A stretch of DNA of 64,000 nt from Thalia democratica. Lineage: Eukaryota. How positions within the stretch are numbered: position 1 is the stretch's first letter; every line of letters begins with the position of its first letter. The stretch spans positions 93,930,001 to 93,994,000 of the forward strand of contig OZ241826.1 in assembly GCA_965202585.1 (NCBI GenBank). The letters run 5' to 3'. The position numbers and the translations under genes are program-made. Below the pieces are notes generated by a model. That model had not been told where the DNA came from. It saw only the letters and a program-made list of their open reading frames with translations, and did no database searches. Of this stretch, positions 16,571 through 64,000 are shown piece by piece.

Positions 16571-18565
16571 ATGCATAATAAAAGTTTAAAACGAGGTACT
16601 TCATGGTCAGATGAAGGAAATAAGAAGCTGGTAGTTGCAAAAAAGTCGAAAATCAAGAGTCGTCATCAAGATACACAATTTGAATTTCTTCAAGTATGCC
16701 GTAAGAATGCACATAGAAAGAAGTCAAACGAGATTGCTAAAAAGCATTTTTTGGCATATATCAAAGGAGTTTCAAATCTAGGTAAGAGTTAAAAAAAAAA
16801 AAACTTAAATTATATATTTACTCTTTTGAAAAGTTATTAGAATTTAATAGTTATACCAACTGAAGTAACTAAGCAAACATTTTTATTAAATACTTTTTTA
16901 TATAAATTCGGTGAAATTTTCTAATAACAGAGAAACCACTTAGGTAAAATTACATTTACAATACCTAACTTAAGTAAAACTTATATTCAGTTAGTTGGTT
17001 GATAATTTAATGTAATTATCTAAAGAAGTTTATTTAAGTTTTAATTGTTAAGCGTATATCTATTAGGTCATGCTGGACAAAAAGACTACAAAATGATCTA
17101 TTCAGCCCAGTTGAACAAAGTATCTTTAGACCACAAAATTGAGAAAACAATATCTAAAAACATAAAAGAAAATATTTATAATAAGGATTTCTCATTAACT
17201 TTAGTGCTTCTGAATTTTTTTTCTCCATTGAGTAGGGAACATTTAAGTGATATGGATTGGTGTTGCCAAAAAATTACGAAAACTGATAACTTCCTGCAGT
17301 TGGATTTAGAATCAGTTAGGAAATTGCTTTCAAGCTCCAGACTCTTGATTACATCTGAAGTAGATATTGTTAGGTCAGCAAACTCATGGGTAAATTTTAG
17401 TTATAGAGAAAGAAGCAAGTTTGCCAAAAAACTTTTACTAACTGTCAGGCTCCCGTTGCTAAAAGAAAACATGTTAAGATACATTTTAAAGGAAAAATCT
17501 TTATCTTTTAGCGGAAACAAAAAGTGTGTTTCGCTGCTAAATAAAGTTTTAGAAAATAGTAAATACATTTACAAAGGTAAATCGAGTGAATATTTTAAAC
17601 CTAGGTATTGTGCAAGATTCAATATTTTAGCCTTTGGAGGTAAAAACGAAAACCCCGAAAGGCCCGTCAGAAAAATAATGAAACTTTCTGACGATTTTAA
17701 CACACCTGAGGTCGTTTCTTCATTAGTTGAAGCTCGTTATGATTTAGTCACAGTTTGTTATAAAAATTACGTTTATGTTTTTAACGGTATTGACGGGAGT
17801 TCTGATGATATGAGAAACTTTGGCTTGGGTATGAAAATTATTTCATCAGTAGAAAGATACAGTCCAGCTACCAATACTTGTGAAGTTGTAGCCGATGTAA
17901 AAGACATAAACGACTACGATATTGATTTATATTCTGTGTGCGCCTTTGATGATAGTATTTTCCTCACCGGAGGACGTGATGATTTGGAAGCCATAGCGAA
18001 TTATTGTTACGAGCTCAACCTAAAAGATTTTAGTTGGCAGGAAAAGTCAAGAATGAGTGAAGCGAGGGAATTTCCTTCCTCTTGTGTTTTTGAGGACAGA
18101 ATAATCGTCACTGGTGGGTTGCAGTACAATGAGGACGGGACTGATGTTAATTACTACGATGAACCTGCTTCAGATTTAGTTGCAGCGAAAACATGTGAGT
18201 CTTTTGATCCAGTATCTGATGAGTGGGAATCTTTTCCATCAATGAGTTATTCCAGGTGCTGCCATCAGTCTGTTGTTATTAAAAACAAATTATATGTAGT
18301 TGGCGGTGGCACAGAATTTTCTGAGGTTTACGACTCAACGTGCATGAAGTTTACTGTAATAAAGAAGCGAATAGTGCAATATCACAATAAACTTTTGATT
18401 GATCCTGTTGCAGCGTTTTCAATTGGGTCTGAAATTTATGTTTTCAGTAAAAGGTCATCGAGGCTATTGATATTTAACATTGAAACCAACGAATGGTATG
18501 AAAAACCATGTCAAGCTTTGAAGGGTATCAGTTGTTTTGCGTCAGCAAAAGTTCCTTATATTTGA
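16571..18565 (+). CDS. BACK + Kelch-repeat (beta-propeller) protein; predicted 2 exons (16571-16781, 17067-18565), 569 aa
   Basis: BACK-like segment NFLQLDLESVRKLLSSSRLLITSEVDIVRSANSWV...VRLPLL, then Kelch blades with GG and W hallmarks (ILAFGG, VERYSP, IFLTGG..FSW, IIVTGG..DEW, LYVVGG). Donor CTAG|GTAAGA (16781/2) and acceptor tattag|GT (17066/7) are both phase 1 and join the 16571 ORF in frame. Exon 1 linkage is inferred. Confidence 0.8.
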
Positions 18566-29909: not shown

Positions 29910-32166
29910 TTACAAAGCTCTAATGATTTCTGCTAGAGAAGTATCACCAATTTCTTCTTCGTTAAAGAAAAATACTGGATGCTTAATCTCTTCATCTAGT
30001 AGATCTTCGAAAGTTTCAATTTCATCGCCAAGATCTTCAAAATAAACACTATCGTTTGACATCTGGTATAAGTATCCCAATAGAAATCTACTTTCAGCAA
30101 ATTCATCAAGAACTACATGTGTTTCATTGTCATTTAAAAATTTCCTATTCTTATTTGTAGTCACAACAATGTTCTTCGTAATTTTCGTCACTTTATGTAT
30201 ACACCAATTGCTGTTCAAATTGTCCATGTTGATTTTATCTAATTTTAAAACTCTTTTAACGTCGTTTCTGTCATAACACCAGTCTTTATCCAAATCCATA
30301 TCGCCATCAAGTGGAAAACAAACTTGAACCAATGAGCTGTTGATAGCATCTCTTGATAATTCTTCTCCTAATGTTAAATACTTTCCATTTATGTAGGTGG
30401 CGTCTACTGTTCTTAATGTGTTTGAAATTTTCAAAACAACCAGTTTTCTACCATCATCATTATCAAGTTCTTCTTTTAACTTTTTATTCATTTTTGCTGT
30501 TTTAATTTTGTACAACTTTGCATCTCGCATAAAATTTCTTTCATATGTTGATCTGAAGTTTAATTCAAATCTTTTTGTAACAGGAGTTAGCAAGTTTGTA
30601 TTATCAACTGCAAGATATTTAAAATAATTCAAAATTTTTAAGGAAATTGTTAAAATAAATAACTTTATGTTAAATGATTAGTTGAGAATACTTCAATGTG
30701 TTTATCAAACTTATAAAATACTAATAAATATAAGCTTCCAAGCTTTTACGTGTTTTATATATAACTAAAATGAAGAAGTTATAATAACAATATTAAAACT
30801 ACTTTACAAAAGTTGATGTTAATGATACATTTGTTTTAAAAATAAAACAAACAACTTCGAATTAAATTTTATACTTTGTATTAATAACAACATTGTAGAA
30901 ACTAATAGTTAATTTATCAGAATGTATTTAAACTACTTTATTAAAAAATAAAAAGTTTTGCGCAAATAATCTATAGAAAACTTGGCAATGTTATCAGTTT
31001 ACTACATTGTTATTTAAGAAGCCTGTTTTTATATAACTATATTATATTATTATAAGTATATTATTAAATAAGACATAAAATGAATATAATATATATTATG
31101 TATTGACTTCTAGAAAAATTTTTAAATGTTGAAAACAGAAAAAAAAATTAAATAGCTAGTTATAATAAATACCTGTTTCTTTATGGTGTTCAATTGCCTT
31201 ATTGTTATGTCTACTATCTGATGCAATTTTATTTTCTAACTTAGTTGACCGTACTATCACTTCTGTCTTTTCATAATTTGCTATTTTATTTTCTGAATTA
31301 TCATCAATTATTTGCACTTTGTCATTTTCTGAATTGTTTGCATTAGTTTGCAATTTTTCATTCTTTTGCTTATTGTCAGTTTCATTTACATTATCTTGCA
31401 AACTACCCTCATTACTATTTTGTTGCATATTAACACTTTCAGAAGATGTTTTTTTGTTCTTATTTTTGGAATCTTTACCATCTTTAGGTTCTAACAAGTT
31501 TGTGTATAGTTTATACAAATGCTCAGTACCGTTAGCTTTCATTGCACCAATCAGGGACCTTTAAATATAAATGTATTGAAATAAACAAAGAAAATGAAAT
31601 ATTAATTTAATAAAATATTCAAATATACTTGAAATAATACAAAAAACTATTACTAGGGTATTTGCTTTAGTCTATACTAACACTTTAAAACTTTTTAAAA
31701 GTCAGTATATAAAATTGTAAAAACTAATAAACATGTCTGGTTACAAATAAAACTCAACTTAACTAACCAGTATGTTTTATTACTAGGATTTATATATTTC
31801 CAGCTGTTACCAGCATGAGAATCTTCTCTTGGCTTCCAGTACGCTCTCCACTCTCCATTTTCGATGCCAAATGCCTCATTGACTCTCGACTGGTCTATTT
31901 TCTCCCAACCATCATCCTGGTACGAAAAAAAAAGAAGTTTAAGAGTTTCACAATATAGGCTTTAAATTATTTACAAACACCAAGTTAGAAATAGATAAAA
32001 ACAATTTATTTTTAAATACTAAATTGGAGTGTAATACTTTATTGATAAACTTTTAATAAGTTAATTTTATAGAAATTATTTTAATTAAACAATTTTCAAC
32101 TAAATTAAAAAAAATAACTTTTTTTGGTTCCCATCTTTTCCGCTCGACTAATTTCTTTGAAGCCAT
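29910..32166 (-). CDS. Four-exon gene (32166-32119, 31916-31768, 31558-31173, 30607-29910), 426 aa, N-terminal MBD-like domain plus unknown C-terminal domain
   Basis: All three introns are GT-AG (202, 209 and 565 bp) with matching phases 0, 2 and 1. Exon lengths 48+149+386+698 = 1281 nt = 427 codons with no internal stop. The model joins track ORFs 31156-31542 and 29910-30632. Exons 2-3 give GEWRAYWKPREDSHAGNSWKYINPSNKTYWSL. Confidence 0.8.
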
Positions 32167-40427: not shown

Positions 40428-41081
40428 TTATAGTTCTTTTAGTTTTCTGTTAGCTGCGTCTTCTAACTCTTCTGGCAAATCAGGTAACCCGGATGATCCT
40501 CTTTCGTGCGCTTTAGTAGCAATAGAACGAGCTTCATCAACTGAACAAAGTGAACGAAAAAGAAAGTCAGAATAAAATCGCGCAACATCAATTGCAACTG
40601 GATGTGCTGGATTGAGGTTTTTATTCGCTAAATCGACTGCTTTCTCAAAAAGGATTGACGCTTCATTCAGTTCTAGTTCTCTATCTTCCCCCGATGCAAC
40701 ATAATATTTACTTTCATATTGAACAGCTAGAAAGCATTTGTAATCTGCAACAGCCTCGGCATTGGTATCTTTTTTAATCCAATAACTATTTACCAATTCA
40801 ATAGCCTCATCACAAATTGTGTTTGTTTCTGATTGTGCTTTTTGATTTATTTCCCACTTTAGTTTCTGATCTACTTTCGAGTCACCACAGGAAACAAAAG
40901 AACGTTGATATAGTAATTTAAGGTTTTGATAACTGTTGTAAATCATATTTCTTTCTTTAAAATTGAGAGGTGTGCCCATTTTTATTACTTGTTTCATGTA
41001 GCTAATTACATCCTCATTACGATAATTTTCATAACACATTTCAGCAAGAGACACTAATTCACTTCTATCAAACTGAGACAT
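40428..41081 (-). CDS. Highly divergent, intronless 14-3-3-like protein (217 aa, last helix truncated)
   Basis: Colinear with 14-3-3: DRSELVSLAE..., YMKQV...PLNFKERNM..SYQN, ICDEAIELV, LNPAHPVAI, A.SIA.KA. The functional status is uncertain. Confidence 0.8.
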   Translation of the reverse strand: MSQFDRSELVSLAEMCYENYRNEDVISYMKQVIKMGTPLNFKERNMIYNSYQNLKLLYQRSFVSCGDSKVDQKLKWEINQKAQSETNTICDEAIELVNSYWIKKDTNAEAVADYKCFLAVQYESKYYVASGEDRELELNEASILFEKAVDLANKNLNPAHPVAIDVARFYSDFLFRSLCSVDEARSIATKAHERGSSGLPDLPEELEDAANRKLKEL

Positions 41082-43232
41082 TTTGAAATTTTAGCTAAAA
41101 AATGTACTAATTTTAGAATTTGAATACAAAGTAGTTATAAAAAAGAAAGGTATAAATTTAAAAGGAGTTTAATTTTTTTTACAAACTAACTTAGGTATTT
41201 CAAGGTTAAATTAAATGACTTTTTTAAACAATATACAGTTTAGGCTTTAGTCTTTTCAAAAACACATAAAGCTACTCTATGAAGGTACTTATACTTTATC
41301 AATTAATCAGAGTTTAATATAATCATCGATTAGCAATCAGGCTCAAGACTATTAACAAAAAATTTTTTTTTAAAAATAATGTTAATTTTTTTTTTATCTA
41401 TAGTAATTGTAAGTAATAAGTATTAACAAAAAACAAGGTAAAAATATTAATAAAAAGTAGTAAAACCGTCACATGGTCTAAAATCGAAATCATAATTTTA
41501 TTTTTTTCTTTTAATTTGGTATGCTTCTAACATTTAGTCGTATTTATATTTTATAATTTTACTCTGTTGTGTTTGTTAAATGGTTTAGATAAAAAAAAAT
41601 AAAATGTAGTTTTATTAAATGCATATAAGAAACAAATTGTTTTATTGAAATTAGTACAATAAAATTTGTTGCTTGTAACTTTATTTTATAAATATAGTAT
41701 ATTAATTTGATTAAATTAAGTTTGATTGTAATGTGTAGCTGCTTTTTATGATAAGGTCTACTAACAATAACTTTAAAGACTTGAATTAGTTCGTTTAATT
41801 ATTATATAAAAGAGAAATTTACGCTAGGTATGGTTTTTTAGGTGCATTTTTAACTTAATTGTTGTGTTTAGATTTAATTTCAAATTTAATTTTATTTTGA
41901 ATAACTTTTGTTTAATAATTCAAAGTATGTGAAATGAAGAACAAAATAAAAATTGATTACTAGATTTCTAACGTTTCCTTTACAAACTAGTTGTAAAAAA
42001 AGGTACTTTTGTTTTTAATTTTAGCCTGACTGCAAGAAGCTAATAATAATAAGCTGCTATTTACAAAATAAATATAACGCCCCTTAATAAAATGAATTTG
42101 TCAATGAGTTAATTATAACTTATAATATTTTTAATATCTTACTTTAAAATAGAATATTACCACTAATAAATTTTAACTAGGATTTTACTATAACTCTCTA
42201 GAAAATAATTAACTCTCTTATTTTTTTTGTGTGGCTAGTTGTACATATATAAAAACTATAATTACTTATTGAAATATAAAACATGATTAATTTAATTTGT
42301 TTTATTTTTGTTTTACTTTGTCTTTCATCTTTGTTTGAAAGATAAAGAAAAAACTTAATCTTAGTTTAAACTGCAAATAATATTAGTATGTTTTTATACT
42401 TTTAAAAATTATATTAGATTTAACTTAAAGATTAGAAAAATTATATTGTAGATGAAAATGTACGAAAGCTTATAATAGATTAATCATTTTTAATGTTTAA
42501 TCCTGATTGCTACCAGTTAGTTATAAAATACTTCAATTAATCAATTATAAATTACGTTGTTTAAGCTTAAGTCTTTAAAAATTAAATTAGATGATGTACA
42601 AAAGAATCTAAAGCTCTAATTTCAAAAGTCATACGAATAAATACTGAAATAAAAAAATTGTAATAAAATTTACCAACTAATTTTTTTTAGTTTTATTTGT
42701 TTTCAGACTTTGATAAAAATATTTCTAGGTTTTTTAAGAATAGAAAATCTTATTATTTCGCAAGATGTTAAAATGCAGAAGTAAGATTTTTATATGTACT
42801 CCTCTTTGTAAGAAATGAACCCTTAAAGTTTTATTTTTTAATATTTTCTTTTTAAAGATACTCATAATAATAAGTTTTGTTATGTAATGTAAAAAAATTA
42901 TACAAAGAATTATTTTAAATTATAGTTAATGATTCGAGATAAAAGTGTTTTTTATTTAATAAAGTTTAAGTTTTGTTGATTTACTTTTAGTGTAAAACAA
43001 TTTAATCGAAAAATGACAATCAATTTTGTTTGGACTTTTACGTTATACATTTATAAAGACAATCGCAGTTTTACGATTTATGTAACATATTTTGTTAAAT
43101 GGGAAAAATTTAGTATTAACTTATCTAACTGTGTAGTTAACTAACCTTTTGTTAAATACTAAACGTTTAAAAAAAATTATTTTAACAAATTGCATCTATT
43201 GAAAGATAAATATGTTTAAGCATGAAATAAAA

Positions 43233-43918
43233 ATGTTTCAGTTTGATAGAAGTGGATTAAAGTCACTTGCTAAAATGTGTCATAAAAATATTTTTTATGA
43301 GAATGCAATAAGCTACATAAGCTACATGAAAGAGGTCATAGAAAAGAGAACACCTCTTAACTTTGAAAAAAGAAATATGTTTTTTGAAAGTTATGGGAAG
43401 CTTACAAAACCGTATGTTAATTCATTTTTTTCCAGTGATGACTCGATCGTAGATGAAAAACTACGGATATAATTAAACCAGTAAGCAAAATCAAAAATAT
43501 CAGGTTTTGTTATGAAGCTATACAATTGTTAGACAGTGACTGTGTTAAAAGTGATACTGATGATGAAGCTATTGCTGATTACAAACGTTTTAAAGCATGT
43601 TTACATTTTGAAAAAGCTGATGTTTCATCAGGAACAGAAAGAAAAATTGAAATTTGTGAAGCATTGAAGCTGAATGAGGAAGCATATATTATTGCAAATA
43701 AAAGTCTTAATCCAGCACATCCAGTTGCGCTAAAGATTGCAGTAAATATATCTTCATTTCGCTACAATTTAAATGAACCCGGTAATGCTCATTCCATTGT
43801 TACAAAAGCCCACAAAGAAGGTTTGTCAAACCTATCTGCGTTACGTGAGGAGTTGAAAAACAGTGCTGAAAAGTATTTGGATGCTAGAGAAGGAAATCTT
43901 CGATTGTGCATAATTTAG
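43233..43918 (+). pseudogene. 14-3-3-like pseudogene (paralog of 40428-41081)
   Basis: MFQFDRSGLKSLAKMC...PLNFEKRNM...KLRI*LNQ*AKSK, then a frameshift to FCYEAIQLL...LNPAHPVALKIAVN...EGNLRLC*. It has two in-frame stops, one frameshift and a 9-bp duplication (ataagctac x2, 43308-43325). Confidence 0.85.
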
Positions 43919-56718: not shown

Positions 56719-57386
56719 TGTAAGTGTGTCATAATATTAATATCGAAATTTTCGTAAACAATAAAAACTGCGATAAGCTTTCTCATCGGAATTTTCGTAA
56801 ACAATAAAAAGTGCGATAAGCTTTCTCATAAAAATCATTTAAAGTTGCATAACAAAATATCATTAAAAAACAAAACTGCGTTAAGCTTTCTCATCGGAAT
56901 CTTCGTAAACAATAAAACTGCGATAAGCTTTCTCATAAAAAATCATTTAAAGTTGCATAACAATAATCATTTTCCCATAAAAAAGCCAATATTGAGAGAA
57001 TATGTGTTCTTTCCGAATGCATATATAAGCGGTTGTTTAAGAAACAGTGCTCGCTTTTTGTTATGCCCTTGAAACAGCGCGGAACTCAACTATAAGCCGC
57101 AGGAAAGGTTTACTACGATCAAAGCTGCTACGACTTTCAAACGGATATCTGTAACGTGTTAGTGTGTTTTATAACTTGTCACTGCACTTTATACTTATTA
57201 AAGCACAATTACTTAATCACACTGAAGTTGTATAAAATAGCAGAAGTTTAGTAATAATATAAATGCCTCCAACGCGCGGAAAAACTTCCAAGTCGAAGAA
57301 ACTTTCCCTTCAACGAGTTTTGCGGTCCAAGGACAAAACGGACAAATCGACTAACATGGATAACTCTAATACAGGTTACAGTTTCA
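56719..57386 (+). repeat. Candidate 5' LTR (right boundary uncertain: about 57221, 57380 or 57386)
   Basis: Starts TGTAAG at 56719. U3-like tandem repeats at 56744-56971, TATATAA at 57022-57028, ATTAAA at 57197-57202. CA-ending candidates are at 57221, 57380 (GTTACA) and 57386. The 3' LTR is not in the window, so the boundaries are unverified. Confidence 0.55.
56744..56971 (+). promoter_or_regulatory. Tandem enhancer-like repeats in the LTR U3 region
   Basis: A 42-43 bp unit cg(a/g)aat(t/c)ttcgtaaacaataaaa..tgcgataagctttctcat occurs three times plus a partial copy, interleaved with aaaaatcatttaaagttgcataac x2. Confidence 0.7.
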
Positions 57387-58603
57387 ATGGAGACCACGCC
57401 CATGCACCGTCCGATAATAACCCGGAATTTTCGCAGCGCAGTATTAACGAAAACGTAACAGAAGAAACTCGCGCAAAGTCTAACATAAGTCCTAATAATT
57501 TAGACTCACATAAGGTTATAAGTGAGGGGGAAAATTTTATTTCGTCAACTAATCCCCAGGAAGATCTTGCGCTTACACGATCATTGTACAACCAAAAATT
57601 ATTAGAGGTCCAAAAGTTAGAAGCGCAGGAGGAATTAGTAAAATTACAAAATGATATTAAAAAACTAGATATTAGGTTAAATCAAAACAAAGTACAACAG
57701 ATGCCAGATTATTACGATCGCGATTTGCAACATAAAAGCGAACATTTTTTCGATAATTATGAAAACAGCCAAAATAATACTAACAATAATTTTAACGATA
57801 CACTTAGAGCACAAAGACTAAGTAAAAAATTTAAAAGATTAACCGTTGTAAGAAACCCGCGAGACACCATAAACTATTTCGAGGAGGAACTGTACGATGA
57901 AAACGTCATAAGCGACTCAGAAAAATACAATTATCTAATAGGGTTTTGGCCAAGAGAAGATATTTCAGATTATTATAAAATTATTGAAAGAGGCGAAAGA
58001 AATTATAACTCACTTAAAAACTTCTGTTTACACCGTGATAACGAATTAACCGAAATCTTAGACAAAATTCCGACCTGGGAAACCAAAACTACATTTAATC
58101 AAATCTTTTCAACGGCCACAAAATGGGCCAAATGCCCAGAAGACGACAGAATAAAGTTTTTTCTCGCGTACTTAATGCCCTCCGCAATAAAAAGTAAAAT
58201 TAAAGAGTATTACGACGCGGACCTTGATGTTTTTAGACGTAAAAGTCAAGCTATATGGAATGCCCATAAAGAAAGCGCATTACAAACTAGTCAAGTAAAT
58301 TACAATAGGCTACACAAACCCGCTCAAAATCATTATAGCTTTAGAAAAAACTATCAAGGTAGATTTCGCGCTGAGCCTCAACAAGAATCTTACCAAAGGC
58401 ATAATAATACAAACAATAACTACAATCACCAAAACCGAAATAGAAACTATGCGAACAATAACAACTCGAACCAATCTTATCAAAACTACCGATATAATGA
58501 AAACAGAGACCGAAACGATTCTAATTCGTATCCACGTCCTTATGCTCGCACAAACAATCAGAATCGACAACAGGGAAACGGGTCCCCGTCGTCCCGACAA
58601 TAA
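57263..58603 (+). CDS. gag: Gag-like polyprotein, 446 aa
   Basis: First long ORF after the LTR. It has a basic N-terminus, a coiled-coil segment, a helical capsid-like core (INYFEEELY...SEKYNYLI...YNSLKNFCL...LMPSAIKSKI) and an N/Q/Y/R-rich tail. No CCHC knuckle is seen. Confidence 0.85.
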   Translation: MPPTRGKTSKSKKLSLQRVLRSKDKTDKSTNMDNSNTGYSFNGDHAHAPSDNNPEFSQRSINENVTEETRAKSNISPNNLDSHKVISEGENFISSTNPQEDLALTRSLYNQKLLEVQKLEAQEELVKLQNDIKKLDIRLNQNKVQQMPDYYDRDLQHKSEHFFDNYENSQNNTNNNFNDTLRAQRLSKKFKRLTVVRNPRDTINYFEEELYDENVISDSEKYNYLIGFWPREDISDYYKIIERGERNYNSLKNFCLHRDNELTEILDKIPTWETKTTFNQIFSTATKWAKCPEDDRIKFFLAYLMPSAIKSKIKEYYDADLDVFRRKSQAIWNAHKESALQTSQVNYNRLHKPAQNHYSFRKNYQGRFRAEPQQESYQRHNNTNNNYNHQNRNRNYANNNNSNQSYQNYRYNENRDRNDSNSYPRPYARTNNQNRQQGNGSPSSRQ

Positions 58604-61600
58604 GAGGAAGAGACGATGGGTACAACAATAATCCTCTTAACAACACTATAAATAGCCCAACTAAAGTAGCTAATGTAACTCATCGTAAATATCATAACCA
58701 ACTTACAAACAAAAATAATAATCCTATATATAAACCTTACTTTAATGATGCCAAAAGGCTTACAAAAAAATCTAAACCATATCAAAATAATAATGAAAAA
58801 CCGCTTGCAAATACTAATTTATTAAACAGTAAAATGTCTACTACGAATAATTTGAAAAGTGATGATGTTTGGAAATTTGAAATAAAAAAAGCTTCACACG
58901 TTAGCTTTGAAAAATTACCACAAAGTTTACCATTTATAGTAGATAATAATTCCGAAGCATTATTTTTGGTCGATACGGGTTGTGAAATCAGTATTCTTCC
59001 AAAAAATCTAACAAATGGTATTAATCACTATTTTCGACCGCAAAGTAAGACCATACAGGGAATAAGTAATACTCCTATACATCCCTTAGGTAGTGTTAAG
59101 GTCATTTTAAAATTTGGTAATTTAAAAGATATCGAACATAATTTTTGGGTCACTCAAGAAAATAGAGAATACGGCATCATAGGAATTGACTTTTTGAAAA
59201 CTTATAAACTATCTATTTCGTTAGAAAACTCTAAGTTGTATCAAAATAAGACCAATCGTGTAGTTAAATTATATACGGCTAACGAATTGCCAAAATCGGT
59301 TGCAGTTACCTCACACAATTTAAAAATAACTGATAACGAATTTATTTCACACTTTGAGGATAAATGTAAAAACTTACTTAATGAATTTCCAGAACTTACA
59401 GAGACACCTGATTACACTCGACCAGTAAAACACGGGCATTCTTTGGAAATTATAGTCGAAAATTTTAGCCCTAAAATAGTCAAAGCGCGCCGATGTAATG
59501 GTGTAAGACGAAGGAAGGTTGAAGAAAATTTTAATGACCTTATTAATAGGGGTGCAATGTCACGTGGTACGGCAGATATGTGCGCTTCGCCCATTACGAT
59601 AGTTCCAAAGAAAGACAATTCCATACGTGTGTGTGTGGACTACACAATTCTTAATGCACACACACGCCCAATGTCTTACCCCTTGCCTAGGATTGATGAA
59701 CTTGCAGAAATCATTCCTGAAGGAACTAAGTATTTTTCGTGTCTTGATCTTAAGGAAGCTTACTATAGCTTGCCTATCAAGCCTAGTTCTCGAAAATATG
59801 CCGCAATAATAGCTCACCATGGGGTATTCATACCCCATCGCACGTCTTTTGGACTAAAAAATGCCCCAATGGCATTTCAGTCCATGATGCAAAGCATACT
59901 AGCAAGTTGCTCTGAGTATACATTTGTGTATCTTGATGATATTTTGATTTTCAGCAAGTCTGAAAATGATCATTTAAATCATCTCAGAAAAGTTTTACAA
60001 ACTTTACACAAGAGTGGGTTATATCTTAATTTACAAAAGTGTGTTTTTGCCAGAAACAAACTAGATTTTCTTGGTCATTCAGTAAGTATCGATGGGGTTG
60101 ATGTCCTAGAAAATAAAGTAGCAGCAATTAAAAACTTACCTATACCTACGAATCGCAAAGAATTAAAACGTTTTCTTGGCTTGTGCAATTATTATAATCG
60201 GCACATTCCAAAGCTAGCCAAGGTAACTGCTCCACTTAATGAAATATCAGGGGGCCCTAAATCTACTAATAGGAGACCTTTACATTTAAATGAAACCCAA
60301 ATTAAATCTTATAACGATACTCTAAATACATTGTCAAACGCAGCGACCCTCGCCTTTGAAGACCATGAGAGGCCACTAATCGTTTATTCAGACGCATCCG
60401 ATAATCACATTGGGGCTGTACTCGAACAGGAGGGTAAAAACGGGGAAAAACGTCCACTCGCATTTTTCTCTAAAAAACTTCCAGTTCTAAAAACTGTCAG
60501 ATCGACGTTTTTTAAAGAATTGCGTGCGTTATACTTAAGTCTAAAACATTTTCAAAGTCGCGTTATAGGTCGAAATTTAATTGTCAGGACTGACAGTCTA
60601 TCTGTAGCAAAAGCTATCAATAACCCTATGGGGAAACAATCTCCAATGGAACAGAGATACATTGCCGCAATTAAAGAATTTAATCCAATAGTTACTCATG
60701 TATCAGGAGATGAAAATAAGGTAGCGGATGCCTTAAGTCGACCCCCATTAGTGACGGCCATGTACATTAAAGTACCGCAAGAAGATTCGGATTACATCTA
60801 TACCTCCGAAGAAGATGACGAAGACAGTCTATCAGACTACCAGTCATCTGAAAGTGAGGAAGAAATCATTACCCCAGAATCTTTAAACAAAAAAGAGATA
60901 GCTAAGTTACAAAGCAACGAGCCTGATTTAATACAGGCAGCTTATGAACATAAAAAAGACGTTCGTTTTTTAAAACCAGAAAATTTAGCAGTAATAGTAG
61001 AAGACGACCAACAACGAATTATATTACCTTTTGTTTTAAGATTATCTGCTTACGAGTTAGCACATAGCTACTTACATTTAGGGAAAGAGAAATCTGTTTT
61101 AGCAACGGCAAAAGATTATTGGTGGCCAACGTTACGGAAAGATGTAGAGTATTACGTGCAAACGTGCTCAACCTGTCAAGCTACGCGAACGACGAGACAC
61201 AATCGTCCGAAACTGGGTTTTTACCCAGAAAACATTGAGCGTTTTCAGTTTGTTCATGTCGACCTCATAGGTCCAATTGAAAAAGATTCAGGAACTTTCA
61301 ATTATATTCTTACAATGAGAGATAGATCAACTGGCTTTCTTGCCACGGCTCCAATCGTAGACAAAAAAGCAGAAACAGTTAGAGATGCGTTTATACAAAA
61401 CTGGTGTGGACACTATGGTATTCCACAGGTCGTAATGACTGATAATGGACGTGAATTCTCAAATTTAATCTTAACTCGCACCTTTGAAGAGCTTGGTATT
61501 GACCATAGATTTACACCTCCTTACAGTCCCCAAACTAATGGTTTTGTGGAAAGAATACATAATCACATTAACGTAGCACTTAGGGCACTTTCTGATAAAG

Positions 61601-62136
61601 CAAACTGGCCTTTGCATTTGCCTTTAATAACGATAAACATAAACAACTCGTTTATGGAAGGGTCGCCTTTCACACCTTCACAATATGCGTTTGGAACGTG
61701 CGTAAATATTAGCGGTCGCGTAATGCTAAACGAAGTAAATGATAACGAGCCAGAAACCAGCGTATTCGACACTAAAATTTTCCTTCATACAATGTCTAAA
61801 GTTAGTAAAGTTCATAGAAAGCATGAAGAGAAAAAAGCTTATTACGAACCGGGTTTGTTTGAATGTGAACAAGTATGGTTAAAACGAAAAAGTAGAAAAA
61901 AACTTAGTTCTTTATACCAAGGGCCTTACCCCGTGCATTCATTTAGTGAACACTCGGCTATCATTGATAAAAATTCAAAGCTTATTAAGGTTAGTATTAG
62001 AAACATTAAAGCGTATTTTCCTAGGGAGGATCTTAACAAAAATGGCGAAAAAATAGGGAAAAATAAAGCGTATGATTTAAGAGAACGAAGAAATAAAATT
62101 AATTACGCAGAAAGTTCATCTGATGACGAAATATAA
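58525..62136 (+). CDS. pol: Pol (aspartic protease, reverse transcriptase, RNase H, integrase), expressed as a Gag-Pol fusion of about 1624 aa
   Basis: PR: FLVDTGCEIS. RT: RVCVDY..LN, YLDD. RH: DASD..IGAVLEQ, NKVADALSR. IN: H-H-C-C (AHSYLH...CSTC), VHVDLIGP, TDNGREF, NGFVERIH, GPY motif LYQGPY. The frame is stop-free from 58525, so the track's ATG at 58834 is probably not the true start. Confidence 0.95.
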   Translation, partial: FVSTSLCSHKQSESTTGKRVPVVPTIRGRDDGYNNNPLNNTINSPTKVANVTHRKYHNQLTNKNNNPIYKPYFNDAKRLTKKSKPYQNNNEKPLANTNLLNSKMSTTNNLKSDDVWKFEIKKASHVSFEKLPQSLPFIVDNNSEALFLVDTGCEISILPKNLTNGINHYFRPQSKTIQGISNTPIHPLGSVKVILKFGNLKDIEHNFWVTQENREYGIIGIDFLKTYKLSISLENSKLYQNKTNRVVKLYTANELPKSVAVTSHNLKITDNEFISHFEDKCKNLLNEFPELTETPDYTRPVKHGHSLEIIVENFSPKIVKARRCNGVRRRKVEENFNDLINRGAMSRGTADMCASPITIVPKKDNSIRVCVDYTILNAHTRPMSYPLPRIDELAEIIPEGTKYFSCLDLKEAYYSLPIKPSSRKYAAIIAHHGVFIPHRTSFGLKNAPMAFQSMMQSILASCSEYTFVYLDDILIFSKSENDHLNHLRKVLQTLHKSGLYLNLQKCVFARNKLDFLGHSVSIDGVDVLENKVAAIKNLPIPTNRKELKRFLGLCNYYNRHIPKLAKVTAPLNEISGGPKSTNRRPLHLNETQIKSYNDTLNTLSNAATLAFEDHERPLIVYSDASDNHIGAVLEQEGKNGEKRPLAFFSKKLPVLKTVRSTFFKELRALYLSLKHFQSRVIGRNLIVRTDSLSVAKAINNPMGKQSPMEQRYIAAIKEFNPIVTHVSGDENKVADALSRPPLVTAMYIKVPQEDSDYIYTSEEDDEDSLSDYQSSESEEEIITPESLNKKEIAKLQSNEPDLIQAAYEHKKDVRFLKPENLAVIVEDDQQRIILPFVLRLSAYELAHSYLHLGKEKSVLATAKDYWWPTLRKDVEYYVQTCSTCQATRTTRHNRPKLGFYPENIERFQFVHVDLIGPIEKDSGTFNYILTMRDRSTGFLATAPIVDKKAETVRDAFIQNWCGHYGIPQVVMTDNGREFSNLILTRTFEELGIDHRFTPPYSPQTNGFVERIHNHINVALRALSDKANWPLHLPLITININNSFMEGSPFTPSQYAFGTCVNISGRVMLNEVNDNEPETSVFDTKIFLHTMSKVSKVHRKHEEKKAYYEPGLFECEQVWLKRKSRKKLSSLYQGPYPVHSFSEHSAIIDKNSKLIKVSIRNIKAYFPREDLNKNGEKIGKNKAYDLRERRNKINYAESSSDDEI
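58573..58639 (+). other. Programmed -1 ribosomal frameshift signal (slippery heptamer plus H-type pseudoknot)
   Basis: G GGA AAC (58573-58579) is in gag phase, followed by a 5-nt spacer. Stem 1 is cccgtcgtc (58585-58593) / gacgatggg (58612-58620); stem 2 is taagagga (58601-58608) / tcctctta (58632-58639). The -1 frame is open from 58525 into pol. Confidence 0.85.
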
Positions 62137-62890
62137 GTCTGGCTGTAAATGCAAAAAAAATATTAAACTTATAGTTTCAGTTTTTTTCGGAATCACAAAT
62201 ATTGATTTTCTAAGTATAAACTTACTGGTAAAATCAGCAAAAGTTATTTTTGATAATCAATATTTTCTTATCATTTCACTTGTTGGGAAACAATGCTGAA
62301 ATTAATTTATTGAAATATTTTAATACTGAAACTAGTTTGAAACTAAGTTTTTGTGTTTAAGCAAAGAGAAAAAACTTTGACGACACCAGTTTAATAAAAA
62401 AATCATCTCTTATCAAGTTTTAAATTAATTGTTTCCTAAGTTTAAAACACTTGTCAGTTTTTATTACATTAGCAAGTTCAAGCGAAAATTATCGAAAGTG
62501 TTTCTTTTCACTCCCTAATGAATTTCATTCGCTACACGCGTAAACTTGCGGTTTTTATTTTCCCTTACTTTTTAAGTGTTCTGTTACGAACTTCAAAAAA
62601 ACCTATACAGTTTTCTTTGCTTTCGCTACAATTCCAAGAATTTTTTTCTTTATTCATATTCAAGCCTCTAGTTTTAAAACAGTGATTTTGTGAAACTTAA
62701 ATGTTTTATAGACATACTAAGCTTTCAAAGTTAAAATGTAAACCAAATCATGCACGTTTAAAAAAGATTACAAAACGGAAACACCTGCATAAACAAAAAT
62801 AAATCAATGTTATCTCGATGTTTAGTTTATTTTTAAACCGTACTCCTTTGATTATAAATAAAATGGATATTTATAAATTTCTATGACAAA

Positions 62891-62929
62891 CTTTTCTTTT
62901 CTCTTTTCCGTCTTTGTTTCGATATATAG
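62891..62929 (+). promoter_or_regulatory. Candidate splice acceptor for a subgenomic env mRNA
   Basis: A 30-nt pyrimidine tract (cttttcttttctcttttccgtctttgtttc) is followed by gatatatAG (62928-62929), ending 34 nt before the env ATG. Confidence 0.5.
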
Positions 62930-62963
62930 CGAACATCGTTTTGAAGCAAACATTTGTTTAAAG

Positions 62964-64000
62964 ATGTTCCGTGTAGTAGTTTGTCTGATTCTGGTCCTTA
63001 TTATAAAAGCGGATGAGGTTATCCGTAAGCAATACTTACCGCTTTGCGAAAACTTTCCAGTAAAAGCCTACAAGCTGACAGACCCAGGCCCTTGCAAATC
63101 TTATAACGCCACACAAATAGTGTCCCCTGTTGACGTTTACAGACCAATAGACGACACGAAAACATTAAAAGCAATTGCATGTAGAGTTAAAATTGAGTAT
63201 CATGAGTGTACTTATTATTTTTTCTTTTCCAAAAACTGTATTTTGAAAAAGGTCGAATATCGACCGGTAGACGCTGATACATGCAAGCGTGCAGAAAGAA
63301 ATAGGGTTACAAGGCAGGGAGTCTTATCCCCAAAAACTGATAAAACACTTTCATCCAGAAACATTCTTAAACCAGTGTTTAGTTACCCGTGGACCACGGT
63401 AAATAAAGTCGAGAATTTTATACTCGCATTTATAACGGTTAACAAAGAGAGATCTTCGAAAACGTTTTCTCACATAACACTTGGAACTTTAAGATGTAAG
63501 CAAGAAGAAAAAGTTTGCTCAGCTGATAACTGGATCATCGTATACGAGGAAAAAATAGAAAACAGTTGCAAAGACCCACCAAAAATAAAAAATACCAGTC
63601 TGGTTTTGCACACTACGGCAAACGGCGTAATTTACGAGATTAAACAAACTAATCTCATTTCCACGATTCTTTCAAAGTGTGACGATAAAGTAACTAGATG
63701 TATACCTACAAAGGAAGGGGAAAAACTATTATGTTTTCTTTCCGGTCACGTCATTAAAATCAATGAGAGTGCAAATGTTTCATCGACAGAAGGGTTATTG
63801 ATGAACACTTCAACAAAATTCAAACAATTGTATGCAGCACTAGCAACAGTCGCAAATATAAATTTGTTAAACACACAGCTACTGCAGCGTGTTTTCGAAA
63901 ACGCGCTATGCAAGAACGCACGAACTAGTTTAGTAAGTTTAATGGGGTCTCAAAAGTTTAACCCTTCGAAAACTTTAAGCTTCCTGTTGGAAAGGGAAGT
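62964..64000 (+). CDS. env: Env-like membrane glycoprotein, class III fusogen-like (partial, 345 codons, runs off window)
   Basis: Stop-free from ATG 62964 to the window end. Signal-peptide-like MFRVVVCLILVLIIKA|DEV, 13 further Cys, and 5 N-X-S/T sequons. Motifs AIACRVK...ECTYYFFFSK...YRPVDADTCK and LCKNARTSLVSLMGSQKFNPSKTLSFLLEREV. Confidence 0.85.
   Translation, partial: MFRVVVCLILVLIIKADEVIRKQYLPLCENFPVKAYKLTDPGPCKSYNATQIVSPVDVYRPIDDTKTLKAIACRVKIEYHECTYYFFFSKNCILKKVEYRPVDADTCKRAERNRVTRQGVLSPKTDKTLSSRNILKPVFSYPWTTVNKVENFILAFITVNKERSSKTFSHITLGTLRCKQEEKVCSADNWIIVYEEKIENSCKDPPKIKNTSLVLHTTANGVIYEIKQTNLISTILSKCDDKVTRCIPTKEGEKLLCFLSGHVIKINESANVSSTEGLLMNTSTKFKQLYAALATVANINLLNTQLLQRVFENALCKNARTSLVSLMGSQKFNPSKTLSFLLERE

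Follow-up and report, generated by a model that had tools for sequence, protein, structure and literature searches.

An env-bearing retrotransposon at the end of the window

The window analyzed here is a 64,000-nucleotide stretch of the Thalia democratica genome (assembly GCA_965202585.1, contig OZ241826.1, positions 93,930,001 to 93,994,000 of the forward strand). At position 56727 begins a long terminal repeat (LTR) retrotransposon of 10,030 bp that encodes gag, pol, and an envelope gene (env) and runs beyond the window. An original prediction, made from the letters of the window, had recognized this element, which is real, and had set its start slightly too early, at 56719. This is an intact Ty3/Gypsy element, most likely of the glycoprotein B (gB)-type "errantivirus" group described from ascidians and carrying an old env. 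The host COX1 gene uses AGA and AGG for glycine at conserved glycine positions, which is the tunicate code and identifies the host as a tunicate. Pieces of COX1, many with stop codons, are also present on chromosome C4.

All features of the element lie on the + strand. The 5' LTR (660 bp, TG...CA; 56727..57386) matches the 3' LTR, located beyond the window (L001 3297-3956) just after a purine tract, at 660 of 660 positions. A 4-bp target-site duplication, AGTG, precedes the element (56723..56726), and the second AGTG directly follows the 3' LTR. The 5' LTR contains a repeat array close to its 5' end and what reads, from sequence only, as a TATA-like TATATAA (57022-57028). The first 124 nt of gag sit within the LTR, and the gag frame runs on through the primer-binding site, 13 nt (57388..57400) complementary to the 3' end of the host tRNA-Arg(CCT). 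The predicted tRNA end has 51 genomic matches versus one for a control, ARAGORN assigned Arg(CCT) at three of four tRNA loci, and one related copy (L018) carries an 18/18-nt complement of this tRNA. A Trp primer site for the window element was considered and rejected, as the tRNA-end matches and ARAGORN point to Arg(CCT). The tRNA-Arg(CCT) gene occurs in big clusters (C4 and C6 of the genome).

The gag gene (57263..58603) encodes 446 amino acids (aa) with a capsid-like core and a tail rich in N, Q, R, and Y. It has no Pfam match, and comparison with Atlas features returned Retrotrans_gag (0.94), which we take as a lead. A six-frame check of the window element found no Cys-His (CHCC) knuckle; its gag is 38% identical to that of a CHCC-bearing relative, P0322. 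The pol gene (58525..62136; 1203 aa plus stop, or 1204 codons) lies in the -1 frame. Pfam matches give the order protease, reverse transcriptase (RT), RNase H, a short acidic bridge, H2C2, integrase core, and GPY motif, and the integrase motifs quoted in the original prediction were all located. The best solved relative of Pol is Ty3 Gag-Pol (E 1e-75). The stretch from RNase H to H2C2 is about 100 aa, one third acidic linker, and looks too short to hold a second "pseudo" RNase H.

At the junction of gag and pol we identified a predicted -1 frameshift signal (58573..58620) that combines G GGA AAC, in the gag frame, with a 9-bp stem (58585-58593 / 58612-58620). The fold at this site has a z of -4.29, with none of 200 shuffles equally stable. 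The GGGAAAC heptamer is found at the end of gag in all 11 stretches checked, including a family at 79% nucleotide identity. These features suggest -1 frameshifting between gag and pol.

A spacer of 827 bp separates pol from env, which starts at the ATG at 62964. Its first 345 codons (62964..64000) lie in the window, and it closes at 573 aa beyond it (L001 164-1885). An in-frame ATG upstream (62883) is missing from most relatives. Downstream of env, also beyond the window, is ORF4 (open reading frame 4; L001 2800-3054), encoding 84 Arg/Ser-rich aa with a hydrophobic C-terminus. It is retained in three families as an ORF of 80-121 aa with an RTRSRSP motif; its ratio of nonsynonymous to synonymous change (dN/dS) is 0.6-0.7, which is not significant as a sign of selection.

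The LTRs, the protease-RT-RNase H-integrase order, and the Gypsy-type RT are those of Ty3/Gypsy elements (Metaviridae). With a primer site present and all three genes running without interruption from LTR to LTR, the element also fits the operational definition of "errantivirus" in a recent survey (Chary & Hayashi, eLife 2026, PMC13524379).

Age, integrity, and copy number

The window element is intact and was inserted very recently. With no difference among the 660 LTR positions, the rule of three puts the upper bound on divergence near 0.45%, and AGTG flanks both ends. The claims that gag (446 aa), pol (1204 codons), and env (345 or more codons) are open and that the element is young are borne out. 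An env query yielded 47 candidates, and among the best 40, which were scored, 13 are full length at 98-100%. Ten of these belong to gag-pol-env copies and three to pol-less recombinants, described below. All three frames are open in half of the ten gag-pol-env copies. Apart from the window element, six of the nine full-length copies have LTR pairs that differ at 0-2 positions. Of 22 copies inspected by eye, 14 show matching 4-bp flanks.

Two alternative LTR 3' end sequences occur among L002-L032, both within the gag frame, and some copies differ between their own LTRs. Some LTR matches also form oppositely oriented pairs with roughly 600 bp between the two (C2:4340240-4341121 and C4:61865026-61865894).

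The envelope protein

Env has a signal peptide, a predicted class III ectodomain, a C-terminal transmembrane segment, and seven N-glycan sequons; a search for a furin-type R-X-K/R-R site in it found none. Pfam returned only weak matches (Rhabdo_glycop_FD and hints of gB), and a sequence search against solved structures returned nothing. A profile search recovered 142 relatives, and a 66-row alignment was used for fold prediction. The resulting monomer model has a predicted local distance difference test (pLDDT) score of 85, versus an unusable 37 from the single sequence. In the PDB, Foldseek placed herpes gB on top (E 5e-20). In a viral library, gB and the G proteins of negative-strand RNA viruses were intermixed among the matches, at 9-15% identity. 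VIA gave Z 11.7 and 11.2 against gB, and 7.8 against Chandipura G.

Env is thus, by prediction, a class III (gB-type) fusogen; the modelled fold, the signal peptide, and the C-terminal transmembrane segment are those of the HSV (herpes simplex virus)/gB type of env. The modelled fold would be shared with herpesvirus gB, rhabdovirus G, and thogotovirus GP. Unlike herpesvirus gB, the protein is smaller, and no gH/gL-like partner was seen in the element. The insect errantivirus type (gypsy, 17.6), with an F-type env and furin site, is not what was found here.

Across families, env is under purifying selection. In four of six pairs dN/dS is 0.11-0.29; one pair is saturated and one close pair gives 0.53, which is not significant. 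Twelve cysteines are invariant in all ten envs of this genome that were compared. The env stretch is also present in marine DNA runs from several studies. These marine matches hint that the host may be a pelagic tunicate; a freshwater cnidarian host, considered at first, was set aside in view of the marine runs and the COX1 code. When JGI metagenome contigs other than viral ones were scanned with env and RT profiles, no family member turned up, and the deep alignment offered no stretch conserved enough for scanning. In one marine metatranscriptome, contigs at 85% likeness cover 27 of 30 bins; many are divergent and there was no silent-stretch control, so they are not evidence of transcription.

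Relationship of pol to the CsRN1 clade

Pol was placed with three trees of hand-picked rows: a 120-row FastTree, 50 of those rows in IQ-TREE with bootstraps, and a quick 38-row LG+G4 tree. Outgroups were matches to the query; they cover a part of the Gypsy clades, and no row is a named reference of errantiviruses, Mag, Osvaldo, Tor, Cer, CsRN1, Boudicca, or Kabuki. The 120-row FastTree and the 50-row IQ-TREE of RT-RNase H agree in making the window family a clade (100/100) and its sister the CsRN1-type rows (99/93), 14 unnamed rows in the 50-row tree. In the latter it lies outside the clade of those rows, its own stem measuring 0.78 changes per site; the join is supported at only 88 in the 38-row tree. 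The CsRN1-type label of these rows rests on P0343, which carries DUF7041, a domain that we take to be linked to CsRN1, and CX2HX9CX3C. CX2HX9CX3C is the Gag signature of the CsRN1 clade (PMC2582038). We consider it likely that the pol lineage and the CsRN1 clade are sisters, with the former on a long branch.

The comparison with this clade (CsRn1, PwRn1, AgCR, Kabuki, and Boudicca; PMC2582038, PMC8220671) yields a mixture. The 4-bp duplication, the GPY motif, and the overlapping gag and pol are shared. Relatives of the window element also share a CHCC-like knuckle and a Trp-type primer site: the knuckle (CX2HX9CX4C, with spacing X4 rather than X3) occurs in P0322, L085, and L087-L091, and the primer site (TGGTGACC) in L084 and L085. 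The window copy itself, unlike clade members, has neither the CHCC knuckle nor the Trp primer site, and Pfam finds no DUF7041 in it. Since relatives have both the knuckle and the Trp site, the window family likely derives from CsRN1-like stock, yet these two features of membership are not found in it.

The original prediction of a CsRN1-like pol is therefore supported as to a sister lineage, but not as to membership. Boudicca and Saci-3 have a reported env-like third ORF (PMC2582038, PMC8220671), so that the window element could in principle be a full clade member of that kind. The duplication, the GPY motif, the -1 frameshift layout, the sister position, and the CHCC-like and Trp-type sites of the relatives speak for this; the missing knuckle, the Arg primer site, the missing DUF7041, the X4 spacing, and the position outside the clade on a long stem speak against it. 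On this evidence full membership is improbable. As for the envs, that of the window is a modelled class III fusogen, and that of Boudicca a reportedly env-like ORF3.

Origin of env

Eight env-bearing elements of this genome, all with open RT and env, span a single RT clade (support 100 in the 38-row tree). Across them, env and RT distances are correlated (rho 0.78), and none of 2016 permutations gave a value as high. Env was therefore likely held since before the radiation of this pol lineage and not newly captured, and the window family likely lost the CHCC knuckle and switched its primer tRNA since then.

Further env-bearing families are present in the genome (L038-L041 and L078-L108), with envs 23-64% identical and most LTR pairs at 99-100%. 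Their primer sites vary among Arg, Trp-type, and a TGGCGTCC type. The gag ATG also lies within the LTR in the L040, L078, L080, L082, L083, L087, and L089 families. In some families (L078-L081, L106, and L108), pol and env are several kb apart and env is followed by a long low-complexity ORF (>370 aa, no Pfam match).

The published group that we compared consists of nine ascidian gB-type elements, all in RT clade T: Clep_errantivirus_1/2/4/5/7/8, Amen_1/2, and Atur_1 (PMC13524379). In the supplement to that survey, the domain I-II row of a Clavelina env can be set by eye against window env residues ~57-257 with eight cysteines, a YFFG loop, and an LH motif in register. YFFG is confined to five Tunicata_C3 rows of that supplement file, and a rough eye count puts identity at about a quarter of residues. 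These Tunicata C3 errantiviruses resemble the window element in their tunicate host, gag-pol-env order, the by-eye cysteine and YFFG register of a gB-type env, multi-copy intact elements, and similar LTR size. One of the nine has a Trp primer site, as do L084 and L085 among the relatives of the window element.

Several observations weigh against placing the window element, with an old env, in this group. None of the rows of the survey's table has the window family's Arg primer end, and an extra cysteine pair (82/92), present in the window env and in eight of ten local families, is missing from the displayed ascidian rows. The env and RT trees agree on only three of five splits. The gB matches of the env model have TM-scores of about 0.4 at a root-mean-square deviation of about 10 Å. 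Membership rests on the by-eye env comparison, the host, and the primer-site likeness; a 6-letter RT motif of the window family has no match in the survey's supplements. The single thaliacean assembly in the survey scored 0.

The original prediction had instead raised the possibility of an independent env acquisition. In one such reading, a CsRN1-like element would have captured its env fairly recently from a negative-strand RNA virus with a rhabdo-, chu-, or nyami-like G protein. The weak Rhabdo_glycop_FD matches and the many such G proteins in the viral fold search are in line with this, as are the Atlas feature matches, which are mononegavirus glycoproteins at a score of 0.97 (at a recognition of 1556, which is under the level needed for a high score to count as strong). 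Against it, env is common to the whole local radiation, including families with RT only 48% identical, and tracks pol. The in-register match is to an ascidian retroelement env, while the viral matches are 9-15% identical. We therefore judge this origin very improbable; recent viral capture of env is excluded, with room left for a remote viral ancestor. Placement by an RT tree within an already described env-bearing family, which the original prediction had named as grounds for giving up its proposal, is nearly reached, although by way of env instead of a tree built with the published RT sequences.

In the available parts of the survey, CsRN1, Boudicca, and Kabuki do not appear in the supplements, nor CsRN1 in the text. 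Neither a gag that starts within the LTR nor ORF4 nor pol-less satellites came to our notice there, though no word search was made for them. No report that links gB-type env to CsRN1 came up in a literature search that did not extend to subscription journals, Repbase, and GyDB.

A pol-less Gag–cold-shock family and its recombinants

We also identified an abundant pol-less LTR family (L049-L067; for example, L051 193-4783) of about 4.4 kb with a single ORF of 611 aa. In the encoded protein, Gag is joined to a cold-shock domain of Y-box type (Pfam E 1e-21; zebrafish YB-1 E 5e-32). The satellite gag has 72% nucleotide identity to that of the window, and its primer site is of the same Arg type. 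The best 40 of 441 candidate copies, which were scored, are all full length at 96-100%. Of the 20 copies examined, 10 keep the 611-aa ORF open and 17 have LTR pairs at 96-100%. For the cold-shock domain, dN/dS is 0.28-0.39 in four of five pairs and 3.3 in one (pooled 0.41, best p 0.05), and selection is not established. The Csp genes of Styela are reported to be bacterial-type and unrelated (PMC7540406).

Four recombinants (L018/L019, L022, L025, and L048) join the LTR and 5' gag of the window family in frame with the cold-shock segment, giving 688-689 aa. The first breakpoint is identical in all four, which lie at different genomic places. Three then revert to the window-family spacer and an open env, and L048 keeps the 3' part of the satellite. 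In eight env-less copies (L023 and L026-L032, two with common flanks), env past base 121 gives way to a stretch that holds an acidic ORF (about 123 aa). Normally this ORF follows the env of a distant family (L089-L091, whose RT is 49% identical), so recombination also takes place between distant families. Another pol-less env-bearing form is L085 966-9890, which has identical 729-bp LTRs, gag, protease, and an open env, with no RT or integrase match.

Exchanges between families would imply shared particles. We put forward, tentatively and at less than even weight, a live helper-and-satellite system in which many gB-enveloped families sister to CsRN1 are active at once. The pol-less satellite, probably far more numerous, would carry a captured host Y-box cold-shock domain on Gag as a possible RNA-binding stand-in for the lost zinc knuckle. 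Co-packaging with the window family would then have given rise to spreading pol-less elements with both Gag–cold-shock and Env. Neither the fusion nor the recombinants turned up in a literature search from which subscription journals, Repbase, and GyDB were again missing.

Proposed mode of spread

The LTR would drive a genomic RNA, Gag translation would start at the ATG within the LTR, and Gag-Pol would arise via the -1 frameshift at GGGAAAC. tRNA-Arg would prime reverse transcription, and integrase would insert the copy. Env could be made from a separate RNA, spliced or internally promoted, and placed in the membrane of budding particles, which might then fuse with neighboring cells, most usefully germ cells. 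We consider spread between cells via Env somewhat more probable than not. One model for how the window element could work is Tor of Oikopleura, likewise an env-bearing Gypsy element, which is expressed beside the germ line and for which such entry into other cells has been proposed (PMC4402516). Unlike the class III env of the window, the envs of Tor and the insect errantiviruses are F-type and furin-cleaved.

The main rival is an ordinary intracellular retrotransposon in which env is a passenger or is kept for another role, such as cell-cell fusion or receptor interference. The multiplication of derivatives weighs against spread via Env: pol-less and env-less forms have both increased, and the eight env-less copies, with one breakpoint, spread without an env of their own. 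Env is thus not needed in cis, and such copies could be complemented in trans. The missing furin-type site fits an intracellular life as well, but furin cleavage is not needed by all class III fusogens. Purifying selection on env across families and open env in many multi-copy families also argue against the rival, which we consider unlikely, and we favor spread between cells.

Other features of the window

The remaining window contains six ORFs of at least 110 aa, none of polyprotein size. Also noted in the window were an intronless-looking BACK-Kelch ORF (17045-18565, +), a divergent 14-3-3 ORF together with another that resembles it by eye (40428-41090, - and 43457-43918, +), and a 255-aa ORF without a Pfam match (29910-30677, -).

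Significance

The window element most likely extends a published group. It likely also supplies a phylogenetic anchor missing from the published survey, in that tunicate gB-enveloped elements appear to be sister to the CsRN1 clade, with some families still showing the CsRN1 knuckle and primer site. The recombinants would document which families share particles, and a helper-satellite system, if true, would be an invertebrate parallel to the defective, host-gene-transducing retroviruses. In this invertebrate chordate, enveloped families that are very young and nearly identical offer a setting in which to ask whether a gB-type env, without gH/gL, moves a retrotransposon between cells.

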